NCBI GenBank assembly: GCA_030427705.1
Contig: JAUIBR010000002.1
Span: forward strand, 220,631 to 255,255
Reading direction: 5' to 3'
Origin: a bacterium
GTDB taxonomy: Bacteria; Myxococcota_A; Bradymonadia; Bradymonadales; Bradymonadaceae
Length of the DNA: 34,625 bases
Below the pieces are notes generated by a model. It saw only the letters and a program-made list of their open reading frames with translations, was not told the DNA's origin and searched no databases. The translations under genes and the position numbers were made by a program. How positions within the stretch are numbered: the first letter of the stretch is position 1; each line of letters starts with the position of its first letter. Below are positions 4,536 to 19,318 of this stretch, piece by piece.

Positions 4536-6137
4536 ATGAGCATTTCACGACGTAATTTTCTGAAGCAACTTGGCATCGCTTCATCTTCTCTTCCGCTATT
4601 GAGCCTCGGCTGTGCCGACGAGGTTGACCTAACTGAATCGGAAACGCGGGATCTAGAGTACGTCTACGATGGGCCAGTCGGTCCCGAGACCGCCTTCGAA
4701 CATGGCGTCGCATCTGGCGATCCGAACGGGTCGTCTGCGGTGTTGTGGACGCGCGTCACGACCGATTTTGAAGAGCCACAAAACGTTGAGGTCTTCTGGC
4801 AAGTCGCGCACGACGAGGCGTTTGAAGACGTTGCCGGCGCTGGATATTTTCAGACAGGAATCGACAGAGATTACACAGTCAAGATCATCCCCGCAGGTTT
4901 GCGCCCCGGCAATACCTACTACTACCGGTTCCAAGCTTTGGGTCGCACATCACCAATAGGTGTGACGCGGACTGTGCCACGTGGCTCGGCGGAACGTGTG
5001 CGAATTGGCGTCACAAGCTGCTCGAACCTGCGCCGCGGCTACTTCCACGCCTACCGTAACCTAGCGACGCGCGACGATCTCGATGCTGTGCTTCATCTTG
5101 GCGACTACTACTACGAAAGTGGCTCACGGGGCGAAGTACCGGGACGAGACCACGAGCCACCATGGGAAGTTGTGACGCTGGAAGATTATCGCGTCCGATT
5201 CTCGAACTATCGTCGTGACCCCGACCTCCAGGAGCTTCACCGAAAGGTGCCCTTCATCGTGGTTTGGGATGACCATGAATCCGCAAACGACTCGTTCTTC
5301 GGCGGGGCGCAAGCCCACAACGCCAACACCGAAGGTGATTGGTTTGAGCGCAAGGCAGCGTCAATCCGCGCCTACTTCGAGTGGATGCCTATCCGCGAGA
5401 TCGAGATTGGACGTTTGTGGAGGACCATCAAGTTTGGGGACCTGGTGCACCTCTCGATGTTGGACACACGGCTGTGGGGACGTGAACGGCCGCTTATCCA
5501 GGCACCTGGGCTCGAAGACGAACGACAGTTGCTTGGTGCCGACCAAGAGCAATGGCTCTTCCGCGAGCTCCAAAATTCGACCGCGAAGTGGCATGTCCTG
5601 GGCCAACAAGTCATGATGGCCCAGCTCAAAGCATCCGGCGCGCCAAACGAAGACGGTGGTGGCGGGTTCCTCAACGTCGACCAGTGGGATGGCTATCGCG
5701 GAGCACGGCGGCGACTCTACAACGTCGTCGCGTCGCAAGAGGACTTGAACCTGGTCGTGTTGACTGGCGATATCCACTCGTCTTGGGCGAACGAACTCTC
5801 TCAAGACCCCAATAACCGCGATGTCTACAATCCTTCGTCTGGTCGTGGCTCTCTGGGTGTTGAGTTTGTCACTCCCGGAGTGACCTCCTCTGGTTTGGAC
5901 GGTCTTCCCGAAGCCATTCAGGACATCGTCGTTGAGGAAAATCCACACATCAAATACTTCGACCTCGTCAAACGTGGTTACCTGGTGTTGGAGTTCAACG
6001 AAGACTACGTGCAGGCGGACTTCCACCATATCGATGACGTCACCACGACGGACCCGAGCGAAACCATCGGAGCGTCCTGGCGTGCGGCTGCAGGTACCAA
6101 CCACCTGGAACGCGTGGACAATCCACTCGACTCATGA
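4536..6137 (+). CDS. phoD: Alkaline phosphatase D (PhoD family phosphodiesterase/phosphatase), Tat-exported.
   Basis: Twin-arginine signal SRRNFLKQLG, then the PhoD-like metallophosphatase layout (GDPNGSSAVLWTRV..., DDHE, GDIHSSWANEL). Confidence 0.85.
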   Translation: MSISRRNFLKQLGIASSSLPLLSLGCADEVDLTESETRDLEYVYDGPVGPETAFEHGVASGDPNGSSAVLWTRVTTDFEEPQNVEVFWQVAHDEAFEDVAGAGYFQTGIDRDYTVKIIPAGLRPGNTYYYRFQALGRTSPIGVTRTVPRGSAERVRIGVTSCSNLRRGYFHAYRNLATRDDLDAVLHLGDYYYESGSRGEVPGRDHEPPWEVVTLEDYRVRFSNYRRDPDLQELHRKVPFIVVWDDHESANDSFFGGAQAHNANTEGDWFERKAASIRAYFEWMPIREIEIGRLWRTIKFGDLVHLSMLDTRLWGRERPLIQAPGLEDERQLLGADQEQWLFRELQNSTAKWHVLGQQVMMAQLKASGAPNEDGGGGFLNVDQWDGYRGARRRLYNVVASQEDLNLVVLTGDIHSSWANELSQDPNNRDVYNPSSGRGSLGVEFVTPGVTSSGLDGLPEAIQDIVVEENPHIKYFDLVKRGYLVLEFNEDYVQADFHHIDDVTTTDPSETIGASWRAAAGTNHLERVDNPLDS

Positions 6138-6367
6138 GCGAAACCGCAGTTTTCATAGCCGCACATGACCGTGCTTGCGAGGAGGAGGAACCGGGTTATA
6201 TCGATCCCAAGACTGGATATTGGGTGATGAGCTCGGTTTTCTTACTCGACCAAGGGTCGTGCTGTGGTTCGGGTTGCCGGCATTGTCCCTTTGATTCAAC
6301 TGAACAACAGCGCGCAGGTCGGCCAAACAAGCCGTGCTTCCCCTGGTTCCCAAGGGAGGCGTCGTGA
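6134..6367 (+). CDS. Small Cys-rich protein (77 aa) carrying a CCGSGCRHCP motif; DUF5522-like.
   Basis: GYWVMSSVFLLDQGSCCGSGCRHCPFD matches my recollection of the DUF5522 signature (CCxxGCxHCPY). Its ATG overlaps the phoD stop (ATGA), and its 3' end overlaps the dusA start region. Both point to translational coupling. Confidence 0.5.
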   Translation: MSETAVFIAAHDRACEEEEPGYIDPKTGYWVMSSVFLLDQGSCCGSGCRHCPFDSTEQQRAGRPNKPCFPWFPREAS

Positions 6368-7359
6368 GTTTTAAGTACCCAATCAGTGTCGCCCCGATGA
6401 TGGCGCGCACCGACCGTCATTTCCGCTACTTCCTGCGACTGCTCACCCGTCGAACCCTGCTATACAGCGAGATGGTGGTCTATCAGGCCATCGAACACGG
6501 CGATCGAGACTATTTGCTGGGTTATGACGAATCGGAACATCCGCTCGTCCTGCAGCTAGGTGGAGACGACCCTGAAGGGCTCGCAAGAGCCGCACGAATC
6601 GCCCAAGACTGGGGCTACGACGAGGTCAATCTTAACGTCGGGTGTCCCAGCGACCGCGTGCAATCCGGAAATTTCGGCGTGTGCCTTATGAAAGAGCCGG
6701 ACACGGTCGCGCGTTGCATCGAAGCCATGATGAAGGCCGTCGACATTCCGGTGACGGTGAAACATCGCATCGGCGTCGATGACTTGGACGCCTACGATGA
6801 CATGGCGAACTTCGTCGAGGTCGTCCGCCAGACTGGATGTGACCGGTTCACGGTGCACGCTCGGAAAGCGTGGCTGAAAGGATTGAGCCCCAAGGAAAAT
6901 CGAAACATCCCGCCACTGCGCTACGAAGACGTCTATCGATTGAAGACAGACTTCCCCGAGCTCATCGTCGAGATCAACGGCGGGGTAAAAACCCACGACG
7001 AGATTCGCGAGCACCTGAAACATGTTGATGCAGTGATGATTGGACGCGCTGCCTACGATGACCCGTTTCTCTTTGCAGAGATGGATTCGCGCTACTTCGA
7101 CGAGACCTCAGACCCATATACCGACCGGCATTCGGCGATCGAAGCAATGTATCCGTACATCGAGGCCCAACGTTCCAAAGACGTTAGACTCAGTCATATA
7201 ACCCGCCATCTTTTGGCATTGTTTAACGGCATGCCCGGGGCGCGCCGTTGGCGCCGGCATCTAAGCGAGAACGCCGTCAAAGAAGGCGCGGGCGTCGAGG
7301 TACTTCAACAGGCACTCGCCCTTGTTCCGCGCGAAGAAGCGACGGCAGCAGCTATTTAG
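6334..7359 (+). CDS. dusA: tRNA-dihydrouridine synthase A.
   Basis: The N-terminus ISVAPMMARTDRHFRYFLRLLTR is the DusA signature (VAPMxDxTDRHxRYF). A TIM-barrel FMN-binding region follows. An alternative GTG start near 6365 is possible. Confidence 0.85.
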   Translation: MLPLVPKGGVVSFKYPISVAPMMARTDRHFRYFLRLLTRRTLLYSEMVVYQAIEHGDRDYLLGYDESEHPLVLQLGGDDPEGLARAARIAQDWGYDEVNLNVGCPSDRVQSGNFGVCLMKEPDTVARCIEAMMKAVDIPVTVKHRIGVDDLDAYDDMANFVEVVRQTGCDRFTVHARKAWLKGLSPKENRNIPPLRYEDVYRLKTDFPELIVEINGGVKTHDEIREHLKHVDAVMIGRAAYDDPFLFAEMDSRYFDETSDPYTDRHSAIEAMYPYIEAQRSKDVRLSHITRHLLALFNGMPGARRWRRHLSENAVKEGAGVEVLQQALALVPREEATAAAI

Positions 7360-8686
7360 ACGACTCCCAATCGTCCTGTAGTCGCTTCAGCTCAGAAAGC
7401 ACCTCCGAATACACAACCGGGTCGACGTCGCGCAGTTGAAAGTCCGTCTTTGGGTAGCCCAGGAACCGGCGAAATCCGACATCCGTAATCTCAATTGGGT
7501 CATCGTTCGCGCTGGCGCGGAAATGCACCAAGGTGTCGACAGTTCGGAATTCTTTCGAAATTTCGGAGTACCAACGGTCAGCCGACTCGGTCTGCCAACC
7601 ACGTTGCACAAGCCATGGAAGCGCGAAGTGGTTGGGAACGGACACACCGATCGTTGCTCCGTGCGATTTACGCTCGTCTTTCGGCACTTTGAGGATCGGA
7701 CGGTCCAGCTGAGGGCAGAGGGTGACAACACCATAGTCGCTCAGCTGTTGACCCCATAGATTGAGGTCTTCCTCGCCAATCTGGCTTGGGTGTACCACGC
7801 CGATTAGCCACTCTTCGTCCAACTCAACGTCATCTTCGTCAGGCCCGATGAACGTCCCGCCTTCTTCGACACGAAACGTGGCTCGAAGCCCACCAGTGCT
7901 GGAGTAAGCCCCCCAAACGACACGCTCGGCGAGGTATCCCATCAGGGGATGATGGAGCAGGTATTCGATCCAGTGCTTTTGACGCCAGCGCATCTGGGTG
8001 ACGAGCGCTTGCTCGATCCGGCGCGCTTGGTACGGAACCGTGTCCTCGATATTGGCGCGCACCAATGCCCAGCGCTTGACCTCCTGAGGATCGGCGCCGT
8101 CAGGCAGGTCGGTGTGCGATTCCAGCGTCTCGCGATCCCGAAGATAGGGCTGCAGTCGCTCGTTCAGATGCAACGTAAACTCTCGCTCGCCCACCTTGAA
8201 TGCTGTTGAGCCCTTCTTTTCGAGGCCGCAGGTTGGAACGACTTGGTCTTCCAACTCCCACGTCCGAAGTGCACGGGCATCTGCGAGGTCCCGTAGAGCC
8301 CGTGCTGCCGCATCTGCAAACGCATGATGGCCGCAGTGGCTGCGGATATGCTGAATCTGGGCAATCGCGGGAATCGAATCAATGGCGACGAACGTCTCTG
8401 CCACCAGTTTTGCGATGTCAGGTGAACCAAGCTGTTCCGATCGCTCGTTGGGATGGGTTGCTCGAACCACCCAATCGCCGAGCAGATGCACGGTATGGTC
8501 GTCTCCAAAGCGCCCCGCGACCAGAAGCACCCACGGATAGATCGTCGGCCCTGCGCCACGCAGCGCAGCTTCTGCAATCTCGCGCGCAGCTTCAGCATAT
8601 TCGTCGCCAAACGCGTCGGTGAAAGCTGTTAGGTCATCGGCGTCACCGATCGACGTCAATCGTGCTGCAAGTTCGTTTTGGTTCAT
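7352..8686 (-). CDS. Hypothetical 444-aa protein, DUF4132-like C-terminal region. It is the last gene of the tfoX_C-polX operon.
   Basis: Long ORF with genome-typical codon usage. Its start overlaps the polX stop by 4 bp (ATGA). The region ...LAERVVWGAYSS...HPSQIGEEDLNLWGQQLSDYGVVTLCPQLDRPI...LVQRGW... resembles my recollection of the DUF4132 (MolR-associated) domain. I see no catalytic motif. Confidence 0.6.
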   Translation of the reverse strand: MNQNELAARLTSIGDADDLTAFTDAFGDEYAEAAREIAEAALRGAGPTIYPWVLLVAGRFGDDHTVHLLGDWVVRATHPNERSEQLGSPDIAKLVAETFVAIDSIPAIAQIQHIRSHCGHHAFADAAARALRDLADARALRTWELEDQVVPTCGLEKKGSTAFKVGEREFTLHLNERLQPYLRDRETLESHTDLPDGADPQEVKRWALVRANIEDTVPYQARRIEQALVTQMRWRQKHWIEYLLHHPLMGYLAERVVWGAYSSTGGLRATFRVEEGGTFIGPDEDDVELDEEWLIGVVHPSQIGEEDLNLWGQQLSDYGVVTLCPQLDRPILKVPKDERKSHGATIGVSVPNHFALPWLVQRGWQTESADRWYSEISKEFRTVDTLVHFRASANDDPIEITDVGFRRFLGYPKTDFQLRDVDPVVYSEVLSELKRLQDDWESSK

Positions 8687-10416
8687 CGAATCAATGTCCG
8701 TGTTCGAGAAATCAGCTCTTCAGCGCTCACGCAGTTAAGGAGGTCCTTCGGTTCCATCCACGCCCGGCGGGCTTGCTGCAGCGCATATTCAATATGGTCC
8801 AAGGATTCCACTGAAGTCGCCGCCGATCCGCAAACAAGCATGGCACCAAGGTGCTTCGCCCGTCCAGCCATCTGTGCGTTGAGGTCCAGACGCTGTGGAT
8901 CGCCGCTAATCTCAAGCGCGACCCCGAAGTCGTTCGCACATTGCACGACCTCTTCGAAGTACATTTTGTAGCCGTCATGGACACCCAGATGGCGTCCAGT
9001 CGGGTGCGCCAGGCATGACACGACCCCCGTCTCCATGCCCCACATCAGACGCTGCGTCATCGTGTCCGCATCCACGTCCGTGTCGGTCGTCACGCCCGCC
9101 AGGACCCAGTCGCACTCGGCCGCCAAACGCAGATCAATGTCGAGCATGCCGTCGAACGTGATCTCGCACTCAACGCCCGACAACACGGTGAAACCGTCAA
9201 TCATCGCATTGAGTTTCTTCACACGTTCGATGTGTTCTTTGAGCCCGCGGTCGTCGATTCCTTTGGCGTGGAGCGTCTTGGTCTTTTCGGTCACAACGCA
9301 CCATTTGTAGCCGCGCTTTTGTAGGGCCTGAATCAGGTCTGGTAACGCGTCGCGCCCGCCAGAAATGGTACTCGAGAGGTGGACGTCGCCTTGAACATGA
9401 TGTGGGTACACAAGGTCTGGCAGCGTGCCATCCTCGCCGGCCTTTATCTCGTCCTTCCCCATCCGAATTTCGGGGGCGATATAAGGAAGCCCGACGGCAT
9501 TAAACACCTGTTCTTCAGTGTCCATTGGACCCACGATGGTCTCAGTCGGGTCGTCATAATGCATGACGCCCTTCTCGCTAATCTTGAGCCCCATCTTCTT
9601 CGAGCGAATTCGCATCTGGATGTGGTGGTCTTTATTGCCCGTAAAGTAGTGCAACCCAGCCCCAAACAGATGGGTGTCGATGACGCGAAGGTCGCATTGA
9701 ATCTCGTTCGTGACCCGCACAGATGCGCGTGTATCGCCGTCGAAAATGATCTCAGTGACGTCGGGCAGAGACTTGAAATAGTCCGATACCGTGCGCGCAG
9801 CATCGGTGGTGACCAAAAGGTCGATATCGCCGATGGTCTCTTTGCCTCGCCGAATCGAACCACCCACCTCACACCGAGCAACCTCTGGGAGATTCAGCAG
9901 TTCAAACCGGATGGATTCGGCCAGTCCTTTGGCCTCAGGCAGAGGAAATCGACGGCCGCGACCGCGCTCCCACCCTTCGATCTCCAACAGTAGCTTGTCT
10001 TGAACGCCGCCGCCGAAGCCCGACAGCGTGGCCAAACGACCATCCAAGGCAGCCTGTTTCAGCGAAGGGATGCTAGCGATGCCCAATTCTTGGTAGAGGG
10101 TTTGGATGCGTTTGATGCCCAGGCCAGGAATATGCCACAGGTCCATCACGTCCCGACCGATGCGGTCTAGAAGCTCTTCATGCCGCGGACTAGCGCCCGT
10201 TATCCGCAGCGCCTGCAGCTCCTCTTCAATCGATTCCCCGATCCCATCGATCTCGTGTAAACGCCGCTGGTCGACCAGGTCGTCGATCGGTTCGGCAAAA
10301 TTCTCGATGAGGCGAGCGGCCCTCGAAAACGCGCGAACCTTGAAAAAGTTGTCGCCCACTACGCGTTGTAGCGTCGCGATCTCCTCCAAAATTTCTGCGT
10401 ATTCTTTGTTGTCCAC
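8683..10416 (-). CDS. polX: DNA polymerase X family protein (Pol-beta-like nucleotidyltransferase with HhH motifs plus a C-terminal PHP domain). GTG start.
   Basis: Pol-beta NT motif GGSIRRGKETIGDIDLLV, N-terminal HhH/8-kDa-like region, and C-terminal PHP-like segments (GDVHLSST..., LEISGDPQRLDL). Confidence 0.85.
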   Translation of the reverse strand: MDNKEYAEILEEIATLQRVVGDNFFKVRAFSRAARLIENFAEPIDDLVDQRRLHEIDGIGESIEEELQALRITGASPRHEELLDRIGRDVMDLWHIPGLGIKRIQTLYQELGIASIPSLKQAALDGRLATLSGFGGGVQDKLLLEIEGWERGRGRRFPLPEAKGLAESIRFELLNLPEVARCEVGGSIRRGKETIGDIDLLVTTDAARTVSDYFKSLPDVTEIIFDGDTRASVRVTNEIQCDLRVIDTHLFGAGLHYFTGNKDHHIQMRIRSKKMGLKISEKGVMHYDDPTETIVGPMDTEEQVFNAVGLPYIAPEIRMGKDEIKAGEDGTLPDLVYPHHVQGDVHLSSTISGGRDALPDLIQALQKRGYKWCVVTEKTKTLHAKGIDDRGLKEHIERVKKLNAMIDGFTVLSGVECEITFDGMLDIDLRLAAECDWVLAGVTTDTDVDADTMTQRLMWGMETGVVSCLAHPTGRHLGVHDGYKMYFEEVVQCANDFGVALEISGDPQRLDLNAQMAGRAKHLGAMLVCGSAATSVESLDHIEYALQQARRAWMEPKDLLNCVSAEELISRTRTLIR

Positions 10417-10428
10417 GGCCAGACGCAG

Positions 10429-10680
10429 CTAGTTGAGATATCCCGCATCACGCCGAAGTCGAGCTTTGGTGGCCATGTCGAGTTCGTCCCACCGAACATC
10501 GCGCAGCGCGCCCTCGAGCGCGTACAGCAGATTCAATCCGGCGCTAGCCTGGCGTGCGGATATCAGCTGGAATGCTTCGACAGGTCCGACCGCTTCGAGT
10601 TCAGCACGGGTCGTGATTCCGATATCGTTCAGCCACTGGATAGTGGTAGGTCCAAGATTCAACAGGTCCTTGAGACTCAT
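10429..10680 (-). CDS. Stand-alone TfoX (Sxy) C-terminal domain protein (83 aa).
   Basis: LLNLGPTTIQWLNDIGITTRAELEAVGPVEAFQLISARQASAGLNLLYALEGAL matches the TfoX_C (HhH-containing) domain consensus LpNiGpks..L...GI.t..dL...G...ay..l.......slnlLyaLegAl. Its stop lies 12 nt upstream of the polX start. Confidence 0.7.
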   Translation of the reverse strand: MSLKDLLNLGPTTIQWLNDIGITTRAELEAVGPVEAFQLISARQASAGLNLLYALEGALRDVRWDELDMATKARLRRDAGYLN

Positions 10681-10745
10681 AGGCCTTTCGACGTAGGTTC
10701 ATTTCAAACGTGAATGCTTGTCTCCAATCTTGGTTCGGAAAGCAA

Positions 10746-11585
10746 ATGGAACCTTTGAATCGTTATGTTTTTGTCGCGTGCTGCTTGGTCGTGTTCGCGG
10801 GCTGCACGGAAGTGGAGTCTGAGCGCCCTTGCCGGCTGACCGCAGACGGTTGGGTGTGCCAGGACATGGGCACCGATACCGGCGCGAATAATGTCAACAA
10901 CGCAAACAATGCGAACAACGACATGGGCGGGTCGAACAACGCCAATAACTCCAACAACGCGAACAACTCGAACGGTTCGAACAACAGCAACAACGCAAAC
11001 AACTCGAACAGCAACAACGCAAACAACACGAACAACACGCCAGCTCCGGCATCATGTGCTGCAGTGCGCGATGGTGGCGGCGCCACAGGAACCCACACGA
11101 TTTCGTTCAACAACAACGATGTTCAAGTCCACTGCGACAACGACACGGCTGGCGGCGGATGGATGTTGGTCGGTCGAAGCGCCCCAAACGGGACGAGCAA
11201 CTCGTTTGGGTGGCGAAACCGAACCGGGTCCGTCGACGACATGAATACCCCATATTCACTGGGGCTGGTTGACTTTCCCTTCACAGAGATGTTGGTCACG
11301 AACGCCGCTGGCGACCGAGCTTACATCGTGACCGCGCCCAATAACTTCTGGGCCGATTGCCAGACCGCTGGGTGTGGCACCGCGGTAAGCGTCGAAGCCG
11401 GAATGTGCAACAACATCACAATGCTGAACTTCACCGGGTACAACGGCGATACTGACCGATTCTTCTTCCGTGACCTCGCCGATACTGCCACACAAGGGCT
11501 GTATCCAGGTGGTTTCGACATGTTTTACGACGACTGTCAGGGCGGCGAGCTCACCGGCGCCCAGGGCTCAATTCTGATTCGATAA
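10746..11585 (+). CDS. Lipoprotein with an Asn/Ala-rich low-complexity linker and a Cys-containing, fibrinogen-related-like C-terminal domain. An alternative start lies at 10710.
   Basis: MEPLNRYVFVACCLVVFAGC has a lipobox VFAGC. A (NNANNSN)n linker of about 55 aa follows. Then comes VHCDNDTAGGGWMLVGRS...GTSNSFGWRN, which resembles the FReD core C-D-x-x-x-DGGGW-T-V-I-Q-R-R. There are further Cys residues and the gene ends DDCQGGEL. Confidence 0.65.
   Translation: MEPLNRYVFVACCLVVFAGCTEVESERPCRLTADGWVCQDMGTDTGANNVNNANNANNDMGGSNNANNSNNANNSNGSNNSNNANNSNSNNANNTNNTPAPASCAAVRDGGGATGTHTISFNNNDVQVHCDNDTAGGGWMLVGRSAPNGTSNSFGWRNRTGSVDDMNTPYSLGLVDFPFTEMLVTNAAGDRAYIVTAPNNFWADCQTAGCGTAVSVEAGMCNNITMLNFTGYNGDTDRFFFRDLADTATQGLYPGGFDMFYDDCQGGELTGAQGSILIR
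10887..11040 (+). repeat. Imperfect AAC/AACGCG/AACTCG trinucleotide-based microsatellite inside the coding sequence; it encodes poly-Asn/Ala/Ser.
   Basis: Runs of aacaacgcgaacaactcgaac-type units are visible across about 150 bp. They also produce the spurious poly-Leu antisense ORF 10763..11116. Confidence 0.75.
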
Positions 11586-15058: not shown

Positions 15059-18000
15059 GTGCATGCTAACACTCACTTTCAAGGTGTGATGGAGCCATTG
15101 ATGGCAAAGCTTCCTCAGCTTCCAAAAGCTGGTGACATGGTTGCGGGGCGTTTCCGCATTCTCGAACTACTCGGGAGTGGCGGTTTCGGTACTGTTTACC
15201 GCGGTCTTCAAGAGAACGTGGGCCGGGAAGTTGCGCTTAAATTCCTCACACCTGGCGTCGCTAAAGACCCTGTAAATGTCGAGCGATTCCGTCGCGAGGC
15301 CTACCACGTCAGCCAACTCCGCCACCCAAATACCATCACCCTTTACGACTACGGCCAGACCGAGGAAGGCCTGATCTACATGGTCATGGAGATCCTCGAG
15401 GGCACAAGTCTGGCGGATACGGTGCAAGACGAGGGGGCCATCGAATGGCCGCGGGCCTCACACATTTTCATCCAAGTACTCAAGAGCCTATCTGAAGCGC
15501 ACCAGCGCGGGCTCGTACACCGCGATCTCAAACCGGAGAACATCTTCCTCTGTGAGCTTTTTGGCGAGCAAGACTACGTGAAGGTGTTGGATTTCGGCGT
15601 CGCGAAGATGACGATGACAGGCGACGATGACGAAGGCTCTGAAGAGAAACTGACCAAGGCTGGTCGTATCTTCGGAACGCCAATGTACATGGCGCCTGAG
15701 CAGGCATGCGCTGAACCGATCACGCCGGCCACCGACGTCTATGCGTTGGGGCTGCTGATCTTCGAGATGCTAACGGGCCTTCCGCCGGTTACAGGCCGTA
15801 ACCGCATGGATGTGATCCACAAGCAGATCCGCGATCCGGTTCCAGAGCTCACCAAGGAATTGGAGGGCACACATCTGGGCGATTTCATCCGGAAAGCGAC
15901 CGAGAAGAAACCGTCCGATCGGTACTTGGACGCATCGGAAATGCTGGAAGCGTTTGTTTTTGCCCTCCGTGGCATGAATATTCGCCCGAAAGCACGTGGA
16001 GCGACGCATCCTGAGATCTCCCTGACCGCGCTTGTCCCAGATGGGATCGACGCGATCAGCGATGTCTCTGAGGACGAACCGCTTTCGCAACCCATTCCGA
16101 AGGCCGTGTTGACGGAGGCGGATCAGACGATGCCGGCTCCGCAGGGGTTCACGGGCGATCCAAACGCCACCAAGCCACCACCAGGTGTCTATCCCGTGGC
16201 TGGTGCGGATCAAAGCGTCGACGAGATCGAGATCGACAGCAAGCCGACGAAGCCAATGCCGCCCCCGATTCCTGCGGCCCCTGATGCACCTACGAAAGCA
16301 TCGATGCCGACGACCGAGCGCAAAGAGCTCGCGCAGCGCATGGCCAGCGCGGAGCGCCGACAACTTGACCGACCAGCGTCCAAACCCCGGTACGAACTGC
16401 CGCTGATTGGGCGTGAAAAAGACGTGCTTCGCCTGTCGAGTTTGGTGCAAGAGCACATCTTCTCGAACGATGGCCATATCGTCTTTTTGGAAGGCGAGAA
16501 CGGCGTCGGAAAGTCGCGTGTCGTCAACGCGCTGCAGTCGAATCTGCGAAACTTGGGCGTCGATGTATGTATCGGCAACAGCCGGCCACGATCGATTCCG
16601 CTTGAGCCACTTCGTGAGGCGATCGCGGACTACTGGGGCGTAAGTCACGCAGAGCGTATGCAGGTCGACACGACGCTGCGCACAGACCTCGGCGCGACTG
16701 GCGATTACCAGGAAGAAGAGATCAATCGATTGGTCGACTTCCTTCGTCCGCGAGGACAGGAAGAGACGCAGGTCGATCTGGGCTCCGACGAGACCGGCGT
16801 TATGTACGCGCAGATCGAGCGGGTTCTGGTCGGGCTGTCACAGCGAAAGCAGCTCGTCATCGTGCTCGAAGACATTCAGTACGCAGACAGCGCGACACTC
16901 GCGTTTTTAGAGTACTTCGCCGTCACATTGCGCACGCAGAATCTGCCCATCGTCCTGGTGTTGACCTTCCGCCCTGAAGAGAGAGCCGCGAACCGCGACC
17001 TCGAACAAAGTCTGCGTACGATCGTCAGCAATGTCGGAACCGGGTTCACCCGCTACGTCCTGCGACGACTTCGTGGTCGGGACCTGTCGGTGCTCTTGGA
17101 CCATATCCTGACGCTGGAACCACGCTTGAAAGAGCGTATCGGTTGGCTGAGCCAAGGCGTTCCCCTTCATGCGATTCAGATCGTTCGCTACCTGCAAAAC
17201 GAAGGTAGCCTGGCGAAGAAGAAGAAGCGCTGGGGACTTAAGAAGGGCTCCCCCCGGGAAATCGATCTTCCGCCGGATTTGATGGATCTGATGCGCCTTC
17301 GCATCGAACAAGCGACTTCCCACGAGAATCGCCCGAGCCTGAAGGCAACGCTCGAGTGGTTGGCGACGTTGGGTATGCGGACCCCGGTCGAACTGCTGGG
17401 CGCAGTCGTCGGTGGTAGTGCCGCGAACCTCGACGAAGACCTGGGATTGCTTCGTGAACAAGGCATCGTCCGACAAACGCTGCATCAGAATCTGATCTGC
17501 GTAGAGTTCGACAACAGCCTGCTGCGCGAAGCAATTCTTAAGGAATTGTCTGAACGCTGGGCGAATCGACGGCTGCACCACGCCGCTGCCGAAAAGAAGA
17601 TCGAATTCTACAAAGCCAAAGGGATGGAAGTTCCACTGGTGGAAATCGCTGAGCACTGGCGACAGGCGGGTGAGACGGACAAATACCGCGATACGATCTT
17701 TGCGGCGGCGCAGCGGTCTATGCAACGTCAGGACCTACGCGGTGCTCGAGAGCGCTATCGCGAGCTCGCCGACCTGTTGGAATCGCGTGACGATTTGGGT
17801 GAACTTTGGTCGAACGCACAGCTCTCACTGGCCGAACTCGCATGGCGATTCGGTGAGTTTGGCCTCGCCGAAGACCGCTTCAAACGCGCGATCCAGAAAG
17901 GTGCCACCAAGGGACCGGGACTGGGCCGCGCGTTTCGTGGTTTGGGGCACCTTTTGGTGATGCAGGGCCGCCAAACTGAGGCCCAGCAGTGGTACCAAAA

Positions 18001-19318
18001 CGCGCTGGATTGGAGCCGTAAACACAACGACGGGCGTGGCGTGGCCAAAGCGCTCATCGGCCTCTCAAAGGTTCACCTCATCAACGGAGATCTGGCTGCC
18101 GAAGCAGAGGACTCTGAGCAGCTTGTGGGCATGCTTCCCAAGCTTCCGCGCGGCGAGATTTCCGGCAAAGTGCAGATGCACCTCGCGGAGTCGGCTCGCC
18201 GTCGCGGCGACCTGACGAAGCGACGCGACTATCTCGTGAAAGCTCGCCAGGAATTCGAGCAAGTAAACCACCGCCCCGGTCTCTCGGACGCCCTGCTCGC
18301 CTTGGGTAGCGCGTTTATGGACCCCGCGATGGACGCGCCAAACCGCTGGCAGGATGCCGGGCAGATGTTCCGACAAGCCTTGGAGCTGAAGCGGTCGTTG
18401 GGCGACCGAATGGGCGTGGCAGAAGCCTACCGAAACCTTGGCCAGCTTGAGGTCGAGCTTGGTAATTACAAAGGCGGAGAGGAATTGCTCCAGCAGAGCC
18501 TCTCGATCCACGAGGCGCTCGGCACACGTTACTACGCCGCTGCAGTCTACAACGCCATGGGTGTGGCCAGCCTGTACATGCGTGACTACGCGGCCGCCCA
18601 GCAGCAAATGCAGAAGGCAACGGACATCTTCAAACGCCTCGGCGACAAGATTGCGATGTCGCACTGCATGATGAATCTGGGAGAGCTGGCGCTTAACAGC
18701 GGCGACATCGCGAAGGCACAGACGATGCTTCGTGAAGCGCGTCGAATGAAAGAGTCGCTAGGAACCAGCTGGGCCGTCTACGACATCCGAAATCACCTCG
18801 CCATTGTCGCGATGTGGCTGGGCGAGTTCGACGAGGCCGAGAAACTCCTCGAAGAAACGCTGCAGACTGTCGATGAACGTGGAACCGGAGAAGACCGCGC
18901 CGTTGCCCGAAGCCTGTTTGGCCTGCTGCGCTGCTTCCAGAGCCGCCTGCAGCTTGCAGCCCTCGAACTTGGCCGTGCGCGCGCAGATGCTGAAGACCTT
19001 GGCACGGACCGTGTCACGTTCTTCTGCCAGGCCAATGCCGCATTCTATGCTGGCCTCACAGAATCGGAATCCGCGTTCAAAGGGATCGTGGAGACATTCC
19101 GAAATGAAGAATTCTTCTACACGCTCGATAAGCTGGTTTGGTTGGAGTTGTTGCGACGCCTCGCGACCAAAACCGCCGAGACCGAGCGCAGTCGCCAGTC
19201 GGTGCGGTTGCTTCAGACAACCGCACGATTGCACGAGGAGCTTGGATTCACGGACGAGAGCAAATCGCTCGAAGATACCGCATCCCAGCTGGAAGAAGAG
19301 ATCAATCAAGCCCGATAA
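15059..19318 (+). CDS. Ser/Thr protein kinase fused to a P-loop NTPase (AAA/STAND-type) and a long C-terminal TPR array (1419 aa). The likely true start is the ATG at 15101.
   Basis: Kinase motifs GSGGFGTVYRG, VALK, HRDLKPENIFL, DFGVAK, GTPMYMAPE. A Pro-rich linker follows. Walker A is GENGVGKSRV, and there is a Walker B-like LVIVLEDIQYAD. Many TPR-like repeats follow. GGAG lies 6 nt upstream of the ATG at 15101. Confidence 0.85.
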   Translation: MHANTHFQGVMEPLMAKLPQLPKAGDMVAGRFRILELLGSGGFGTVYRGLQENVGREVALKFLTPGVAKDPVNVERFRREAYHVSQLRHPNTITLYDYGQTEEGLIYMVMEILEGTSLADTVQDEGAIEWPRASHIFIQVLKSLSEAHQRGLVHRDLKPENIFLCELFGEQDYVKVLDFGVAKMTMTGDDDEGSEEKLTKAGRIFGTPMYMAPEQACAEPITPATDVYALGLLIFEMLTGLPPVTGRNRMDVIHKQIRDPVPELTKELEGTHLGDFIRKATEKKPSDRYLDASEMLEAFVFALRGMNIRPKARGATHPEISLTALVPDGIDAISDVSEDEPLSQPIPKAVLTEADQTMPAPQGFTGDPNATKPPPGVYPVAGADQSVDEIEIDSKPTKPMPPPIPAAPDAPTKASMPTTERKELAQRMASAERRQLDRPASKPRYELPLIGREKDVLRLSSLVQEHIFSNDGHIVFLEGENGVGKSRVVNALQSNLRNLGVDVCIGNSRPRSIPLEPLREAIADYWGVSHAERMQVDTTLRTDLGATGDYQEEEINRLVDFLRPRGQEETQVDLGSDETGVMYAQIERVLVGLSQRKQLVIVLEDIQYADSATLAFLEYFAVTLRTQNLPIVLVLTFRPEERAANRDLEQSLRTIVSNVGTGFTRYVLRRLRGRDLSVLLDHILTLEPRLKERIGWLSQGVPLHAIQIVRYLQNEGSLAKKKKRWGLKKGSPREIDLPPDLMDLMRLRIEQATSHENRPSLKATLEWLATLGMRTPVELLGAVVGGSAANLDEDLGLLREQGIVRQTLHQNLICVEFDNSLLREAILKELSERWANRRLHHAAAEKKIEFYKAKGMEVPLVEIAEHWRQAGETDKYRDTIFAAAQRSMQRQDLRGARERYRELADLLESRDDLGELWSNAQLSLAELAWRFGEFGLAEDRFKRAIQKGATKGPGLGRAFRGLGHLLVMQGRQTEAQQWYQNALDWSRKHNDGRGVAKALIGLSKVHLINGDLAAEAEDSEQLVGMLPKLPRGEISGKVQMHLAESARRRGDLTKRRDYLVKARQEFEQVNHRPGLSDALLALGSAFMDPAMDAPNRWQDAGQMFRQALELKRSLGDRMGVAEAYRNLGQLEVELGNYKGGEELLQQSLSIHEALGTRYYAAAVYNAMGVASLYMRDYAAAQQQMQKATDIFKRLGDKIAMSHCMMNLGELALNSGDIAKAQTMLREARRMKESLGTSWAVYDIRNHLAIVAMWLGEFDEAEKLLEETLQTVDERGTGEDRAVARSLFGLLRCFQSRLQLAALELGRARADAEDLGTDRVTFFCQANAAFYAGLTESESAFKGIVETFRNEEFFYTLDKLVWLELLRRLATKTAETERSRQSVRLLQTTARLHEELGFTDESKSLEDTASQLEEEINQAR

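Follow-up and report, generated by a model that had tools for sequence, protein, structure and literature searches.

Three adjacent minus-strand genes are analysed here in a 34,625-nucleotide (nt) stretch of a Bradymonadaceae genome (contig JAUIBR010000002.1, positions 220,631 to 255,255), which in its whole length is called the window. They encode a stand-alone TfoX_C protein, a family X DNA polymerase (PolX) and a 444-amino-acid (aa) protein of the DUF4132 family. The components are of known kinds and the combination is new: the nuclease domain of the PolX is inactivated, and the DUF4132 protein that goes with it is minimal. This pair has been kept through rearrangements in one Bradymonadales clade. 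The reading that we favour, which we hold with about even confidence, is that of a two-gene chromosomal repair pair made of a gap-filling polymerase and a non-catalytic DUF4132 adaptor or regulator, with TfoX_C as an accessory. The features of the cluster are the following, in window positions:

10681..10745: short divergent intergenic region between the TfoX_C gene and the gene of a 291-aa putative lipoprotein; presumed promoter of the cluster
10429..10680, minus strand: TfoX_C gene (stand-alone, HhH-type; 83 aa, ATG start)
10417..10428, minus strand: 12-nt spacer from the TfoX_C stop (TAG) to the PolX GTG, read directly from the sequence
8683..10416, minus strand: PolX gene (577 aa, GTG start at 10414-10416)
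9442..10416, minus strand: PolX polymerase core, aa 1-325, with 8-kDa/HhH, fingers, palm and thumb (Pfam and alignment with 3AU2)
8686..9411, minus strand: PolX PHP domain, aa 336-577, fold kept and metal site lost (ligand alignment)
8683..8686, minus strand: ATGA, the 4-base-pair (bp) overlap of PolX stop and DUF4132 start, a signature of translational coupling
7352..8686, minus strand: DUF4132 gene (444 aa, ATG start)
8237..8686, minus strand: N-terminal HEAT/ARM-like helical repeats of the 444-aa protein, aa 1-150
7352..8236, minus strand: DUF4132 alpha/beta core, aa 151-444 plus stop

The loss concerns a domain with a well-established role. The PHP domain of canonical PolX is metal-dependent and confers 3'-5' exonuclease, apurinic/apyrimidinic endonuclease and 3'-phosphatase activities by means of nine ligands. 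In the window protein the polymerase part is of the usual kind, with Pfam matches to HHH_8 (1.3e-13), palm (7e-08) and thumb (5.8e-17), and the NCBIfam PolX equivalog model NF006375 matches from end to end at 414.5 bits, under its cut-off of 426; the middle gene had already been called PolX in the initial annotation, and the call is borne out. The GTG start is fixed by the alignment with Thermus thermophilus PolX (3AU2, E 5e-97), which begins at residue 1 and runs through residue 568. When 117 PolX homologues were aligned with the T. thermophilus protein as residue reference (polymerase triad D198/D200/D243; PHP ligands Q342/H344/D349/H374/E413/H440/H468/D529/H531), the Asp triad was found intact in the window protein (D197/D199/D242) and in all 117 homologues. 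The PHP positions of the window protein read H346 S348 G353 K378 E416 T443 H471 A532 T534 where canonical proteins have H H D H E H H D H; three of the nine metal ligands are kept and six are lost. Degenerate ligands, with substitutions that vary from member to member, are found throughout the clade (29 members, P0010-P0039). Among the 87 relatives at greater distance HHDHEHHDH is read in 85, and P0042 and P0111 depart from it.

Profile searches and rates of divergence give the same picture. The Pfam PHP model (PF02811) has no match in the window PolX, although the NCBIfam PHP models still align with aa 339-573 (E 1.4e-39); in precomputed Pfam annotation the PHP match is absent from every PolX homologue at least 53% identical to that of the window and present in homologues at most 47% identical, which belong to Lujinxingia, Persicimonas and Bradymonas. 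Within the clade the polymerase core shows 67.5% identity and the PHP domain 49.0%, with PHP the lower in 100% of pairs, whereas canonical relatives have 59.2% for the core and 65.5% for PHP, which is the lower in 9% of pairs. Since the PHP domain of the clade is less conserved than the polymerase core, it has been kept but freed of catalytic constraint, and its nuclease is probably dead, as judged from the residues at the metal site. The initial annotation missed the ablation of the PHP nuclease site, by which this is no ordinary PolX. In bacterial PolX the PHP site has been reported as the most conserved feature, above the polymerase site, and the proteins described as "noncanonical" are polymerase-dead and PHP-active (PMC9226535, PMC12926913); minor variants of the PHP motif, such as HHRERHEDC, occur at 1-3% of sequences in one of these studies and were not singled out (PMC9226535). 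By its sequence, the PolX clade of the window is the mirror image of the noncanonical proteins, polymerase-intact and PHP-dead.

Some observations on the 5' ends of the clade PolX genes may be recorded here. The first codon is GTG in the window, L002, L006 and L009, TTG in L004, L005 and L020, ATG in L008 and L010, and ATC in L003 (2431-2433), L011 (5896-5898), L012 (5735-5737, minus strand) and L015 (646-648). No in-frame ATG, GTG or TTG lies upstream of the ATC in L011, L012 and L015, and GGAGG is found 6-8 nt ahead of it in L003, L011 and L012, which suggests genuine ATC initiation. The missing HHH_8 Pfam match in P0027-P0033 is explained by gene callers having truncated these proteins to 530-551 aa.

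The second line of evidence is the association of this PolX with the DUF4132 gene. Neighbourhoods were read for the PolX genes of the clade and for the closest DUF4132 relatives; the closest PolX loci among reference genomes come from Bradymonadaceae and Microvenator metagenome-assembled genomes, members of the Bradymonadales, which bears out the taxon guessed at first. The sequence of the window is found on a Logan contig and on a 255-kb NCBI contig. L001 is the window locus, L004/L007 and L012/L013 were each counted as one locus, and three loci could not be assessed for pairing, L005 and L006 because they end inside or at PolX and L016 because it has too little upstream sequence. The two genes are adjacent in 9 of the 12 assessable loci of the clade (the window/L001, L020, L002, L004/L007, L008, L011, L012/L013, L014 and L015), and in five of them (the window, L008, L014, L015 and L020) they overlap by 4 bp. 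Three arrangements occur: the two genes are in tandem, in tandem but separated by an antisense DUF5522 gene (L011), or divergent (L012/L013). The flanking genes vary among the pair loci, those of L011 being riboflavin genes. By contrast, the PolX loci of Bradymonas sediminis and Lujinxingia vulgaris, with canonical PHP, have no DUF4132 and no TfoX_C gene within 7 kb. Seen from the other side, in the closest DUF4132 subfamily (E<1e-55) all genes with readable context adjoin such a PolX, and a metagenome scan with the subfamily alignment returned one locus, L007, a near-duplicate of L004. The pairing is real and, in the loci examined, specific to the PHP-dead clade. The supplementary files of a published survey of PolX gene neighbourhoods, in the part that was accessible, contain no TfoX, DUF4132 or WGR. 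The linkage supposed in the initial annotation therefore stands for PolX and DUF4132, with 9 of 12 loci, three arrangements and differing flanks, but not for TfoX_C.

The initial layout, three co-oriented minus-strand genes with a 12-nt gap and a 4-bp overlap, agrees exactly with the open reading frame (ORF) list and with the sequence. The three ORFs are real genes, with homologues and with far fewer nonsynonymous than synonymous differences from the nearest relative; pN is far below pS in all three, which indicates purifying selection, and with synonymous sites saturated (pS about 0.7) only dN ratios, and no dN/dS, were used. The genes lie on one strand, with a short gap or overlap and without an internal terminator, as is usual in operons, and their spacing suggests that they are co-transcribed. 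Consensus scans gave neither an intrinsic terminator nor a sigma-70-like promoter inside the cluster, and a promoter consensus scan gave no sigma-70 match in the intergenic region 10681..10745, which would nevertheless be the place of the promoter. No Shine-Dalgarno sequence is evident in the 12-nt spacer, where the 20 nt upstream of the PolX start read TCAACTAGCTGCGTCTGGCC; coupled translation or re-initiation across the spacer is likely.

The 444-aa protein was at first found to resemble DUF4132, and Pfam confirms the family (E 7.1e-30, 104.7 bits against a cut-off of 27, aa 199-364); what had been overlooked is the size of the homologous unit and the absence of WGR. Word-indexed homologue searches found almost nothing, and it was an exhaustive search that revealed the family, with 4,452 cluster representatives, 223 of them at E<=1e-30. 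The relatives are mostly about 900-1,100 aa long, and it is their C-terminal ~400 residues that align with aa ~35-437 of the window protein, a unit of ~400 aa as compared with the 179 positions of the Pfam domain. The expectation that DUF4132 accompanies WGR elsewhere proved right, an N-terminal WGR domain being present in four of the six long relatives sampled, and some long relatives also carry LRV/HEAT repeats. The 444-aa protein has no Pfam match to WGR and just ~150 aa of helical repeats; its domain content marks it as a short-form member of the WGR-HEAT-DUF4132 family that has no WGR. Its own subfamily counts about 13 representatives at E<1e-55, of 285-560 aa, plus one of 1,673 aa.

AlphaFold2 models of the protein are confident and consist of HEAT-like repeats and an alpha/beta core; they matched no catalytic fold, and the best structural match of the core is 2PWW, an uncharacterised alpha+beta protein. 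R223, P247, H299 and Q326 are invariant in alignments of 97 and of 150 sequences, W311 is so in the former, and Q220, E225, H246, R272, Y318, R329 and E428 are near-invariant; all the invariant residues of the family are present in the window protein. The protein changes quickly. DUF4132 and PolX identities are 42% and 84% between the window and L020, 43% and 74% between L011 and L012, and 76% and 91% between L002 and L004, and by dN DUF4132 diverges 3-5 times faster than PolX, although its pN remains far below pS.

Links between this family and DNA damage are found in other bacteria. In E. coli K-12 the gene order is yehF (of the PF05406 family, which is WGR), yehH (a pseudogene), yehI (DUF4132), yehK and yehL (a MoxR ATPase). 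An SOS-box-like site, CTGGATAAAATTACAG, lies 10 nt upstream of yehF (L019:6450-6465; NC_000913.3, about 2196449-2196464), which is consistent with the listing of molR in the LexA regulon, molR of the older annotation corresponding to yehF/yehH. A known SOS box has been listed for molR as a member of the LexA regulon (PMC6590174). In Deinococcus radiodurans, DRA0166 (DUF4132) and DR2173 (WGR) are strongly induced on depletion of DdrO (PMC8533742). Literature searches on yehI and yehH found nothing informative.

The TfoX_C gene has a different history. That the 83-aa ORF carries this domain was rightly recognised (Pfam E 2.7e-22, 79 bits against a cut-off of 23), and the domain spans aa 2-77; among solved structures the protein is closest to the uncharacterised 3BQT/3MAB (E 2e-10), and literature searches on TfoX_C found nothing informative. 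Because Pfam finds no TfoX_N domain in it, the protein is not a Sxy/TfoX regulator. Among the clade loci, tblastn matched only the contig of the window itself and L020, the nearest relative (PolX 84% identical), where a C-terminal fragment with 75% identity over aa 38-81 ends 14 nt ahead of PolX. The gene is absent, by tblastn, from the 10 other assessable clade loci, including L005 from a Microvenator sp. metagenome-assembled genome with PolX 75% identical. In L002, L005 and L006 nothing but a conserved leader of ~80 nt stands between PolX and the neighbouring gene, and L004 has the same leader after a different upstream gene. The leader is located directly upstream of PolX as follows:

L002:3885-3962
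L004:7925-8000
L005:795-872
L006:7925-8000

In order it contains TTTTGTGRACA, about 8 nt, GAATCCGRGTATGCTC, then GGGTTGCGC, GCGC and GAGTCAA. It has no Rfam match and looks like a promoter with a short GC hairpin leader. The window is without it, and TfoX_C occupies that position; as only the window and L020 carry TfoX_C, it is a recent insertion and not part of a conserved module.

Around the cluster the window is occupied by housekeeping genes, namely those for Dus, PhoD, Tgt, an aldehyde dehydrogenase and shikimate and chorismate enzymes, together with an RseP-type protease, TsaB, GlnD and Ser/Thr kinases; mobile-element, competence and defence genes are absent from its 34.6 kb. The neighbouring features are:

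6134-6367, plus strand: small Cys-rich DUF5522 gene (77 aa; Pfam 3.7e-20)
6334-7359, plus strand: dus, with an 8-bp convergent 3' overlap with the DUF4132 gene at 7352-7359
10710-11585, plus strand: 291-aa ORF with a lipoprotein-like N-terminus, divergent from the cluster
15059-19318, plus strand: Ser/Thr kinase of 1,419 aa with AAA_16 and TPR (STAND-like), 4.4 kb from the cluster

The DUF4132 and dus genes leave no room for a terminator between them, as their 3' ends overlap by 8 bp, and Dus must have been inverted at least once, since it is convergent in the window, L008 and L012 and co-directional in L002 and L004. The DUF5522 gene of the window overlaps the end of PhoD and the start of Dus; in relatives DUF5522 is found at L009:3845-4093 and at L011:7622-7861, the latter being the antisense gene between PolX and DUF4132, and a frame that shares the Cys-rich C-terminal motif immediately precedes PolX in L010 and L012. 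The 291-aa ORF has a long Asn/Ser-rich low-complexity tract (NNANNSNN repeats), no Pfam match, and homologues of 33-38% identity in the same position in L002 and L006. Kinase-STAND-TPR genes similar to that of the window occur near PolX in L011 (1-2453) and L012 (1-1369), and in L009 the gene next after PolX encodes a plain kinase; the proximity may be mere synteny. The sole Rfam match in the window is a tRNA gene at 461-534 of the plus strand (66.8 bits), unrelated to the cluster.

In the mechanism that we propose, the PolX and DUF4132 proteins would act together in gap or break repair. PolX would bind and fill short gaps through its 8-kDa/HhH core, and the DUF4132 protein, made in stoichiometric amounts, would bind PolX, most plausibly on the inactivated PHP domain, serving as an adaptor or regulator between the polymerase and DNA ends or other end-processing factors. 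The part of PolX would be taken, in the long-form relatives, by their covalently attached WGR break sensor. The TfoX_C protein would be a small HhH DNA-binding protein, inserted in place of the ancestral polX leader in the lineage of the window genome and its nearest relative and confined to it, and so an accessory. A bolder version, rather unlikely as it stands and drawn by analogy, is that the dead PHP domain has become a docking site, which would give a two-subunit gap-repair polymerase, and that DUF4132 is the effector-coupling half of break sensors that are either WGR-fused or PolX-bound.

Other explanations have to be weighed against this one. The initial annotation saw in the cluster a DNA-uptake or DNA-repair accessory operon, and a conserved operon of this kind with TfoX_C as an integral member would account for the co-oriented genes with their 12-nt gap and 4-bp overlap, for the recurrence of order and spacing in L020 and for purifying selection on a real HhH-type domain. 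Such an operon is nonetheless improbable, as TfoX_C is missing upstream of PolX in the 10 other assessable loci, PolX in L002, L005 and L006 stands behind a leader that the window lacks, the protein has no TfoX_N domain, and neither TfoX nor DUF4132 occurs in the accessible part of the supplementary survey files. The uptake link also fails on the setting, with nothing that ties the cluster to uptake, no competence or uptake genes in the window and its other genes housekeeping. A more serious contender, unlikely on balance but not to be dismissed lightly, is that PolX and DUF4132 are neighbours by inherited synteny, in a chromosomal region that rearranges slowly, without functional coupling and that the decay of PHP is an unrelated neutral loss. 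The positive loci share Dus, PhoD and a 717-aa membrane protein, they all come from one clade, the neighbour is missing in three clade loci, and DUF4132 evolves much faster than PolX; yet the pair persists while flanks and orientation change (the riboflavin genes of L011, the divergent order of L012, the inversion of Dus), the exact 4-bp start/stop overlap is found in five loci, the association is with the PHP-dead clade and does not extend to the canonical PolX loci, and WGR and DUF4132 have independent ties to DNA-damage regulons.

DUF4132 could instead be an unrecognised enzyme, for instance a metal-dependent end-processing hydrolase, that replaces the PHP activities in trans. Compensation for PHP loss would be expected because this activity is normally the most conserved function of PolX (PMC9226535, PMC12926913), in the loci examined DUF4132 accompanies PHP-dead PolX alone, and the conservation of R223, E225, H246, R272, H299, Y318, Q326, R329 and E428 is pocket-like; we nevertheless give this possibility a low probability. 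A conflict or defence system, with DUF4132 as sensor or immunity component and PolX as effector, is very improbable indeed. Its attractions are the fast divergence of DUF4132 relative to its neighbours, a match of the protein to one PHROG of unknown function and the location of the E. coli DUF4132 genes beside a MoxR-type ATPase gene cluster. On the other hand, PADLOC has no match for any of the three proteins at E<=0.01, the setting is chromosomal, syntenic and housekeeping without mobile-element genes, dN is far below dS with no sign of positive selection, and the PolX polymerase core is highly conserved; this reading was rejected on the PADLOC result and the housekeeping context. The repair pair formed by PolX and DUF4132 is the reading that we retain, and several points weigh against it. 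In L003, L009 and L010 PHP is equally degenerate and no DUF4132 gene is adjacent, so that the partner is either not obligatory or located elsewhere in the genome. The nine positive loci, all from one clade and one order, do not count as nine separate events, and some of their adjacency is owed to inherited synteny. A 3-5-fold higher divergence is unusual for a tightly bound subunit, the conserved R, H, Q, E and Y residues could mark an unrecognised active site and not a binding surface, and docking on PHP is proposed purely by analogy.

The PHP-dead clade is a counter-example to the reported primacy of PHP in bacterial PolX, and it raises the question of what role a nuclease-less bacterial PolX may have and who cleans the DNA ends. 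DUF4132 is a widespread family without known function, and a two-protein, WGR-less pair beside a well-understood polymerase offers a much more tractable entry to it than the multi-domain forms of 900-1,200 aa. If the docking proposal were true, it would provide the first functional handle on a family of more than 4,400 cluster representatives.

Among known systems, the canonical PolX1 enzymes (B. subtilis YshC and T. thermophilus PolX, 3AU2) resemble the window PolX in five-part architecture, length, Asp triad and HhH, and differ from it in that the PHP metal site of the latter is destroyed (three of nine ligands), its score falls below the NCBIfam cut-off, and in its clade PHP is the faster-evolving part, whereas in canonical PolX it is the polymerase core. 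The noncanonical, Deinococcus-type PolX proteins (PMC9226535) have likewise lost one active site and kept the domain, but theirs is the polymerase that is dead and the PHP that is active, and the opposite is predicted for the clade of the window. The alpha subunit of E. coli Pol III retains a PHP domain that has lost its metal ligands and docks the epsilon proofreader (PMC3666897; discussed in PMC12926913). It thus likewise has a retained, ligand-less PHP domain, which there serves a separately encoded partner; in contrast, it belongs to family C and not to family X, its partner is a known exonuclease, whereas that of the window PolX is without a catalytic fold, and binding in the present case is suggested by analogy.

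The WGR-DUF4132 proteins (E. coli molR/yehF-yehH-yehI; D. radiodurans DR2173 and DRA0166) contain the same ~400-aa module as the window protein and have in common a link to DNA damage, through the SOS box at yehF/molR and the DdrO regulon. The window protein differs from them in its 444 aa, in lacking WGR, in carrying ~150 aa of repeats and in being paired with PolX, and no MoxR or vWA genes lie near the pair. Finally, the TfoX/Sxy competence regulators have a C-terminal HhH-type TfoX_C domain in common with the 83-aa protein, which in turn is short, has no TfoX_N and no link to CRP-S or competence genes at this locus, and resembles the stand-alone 3BQT/3MAB proteins.

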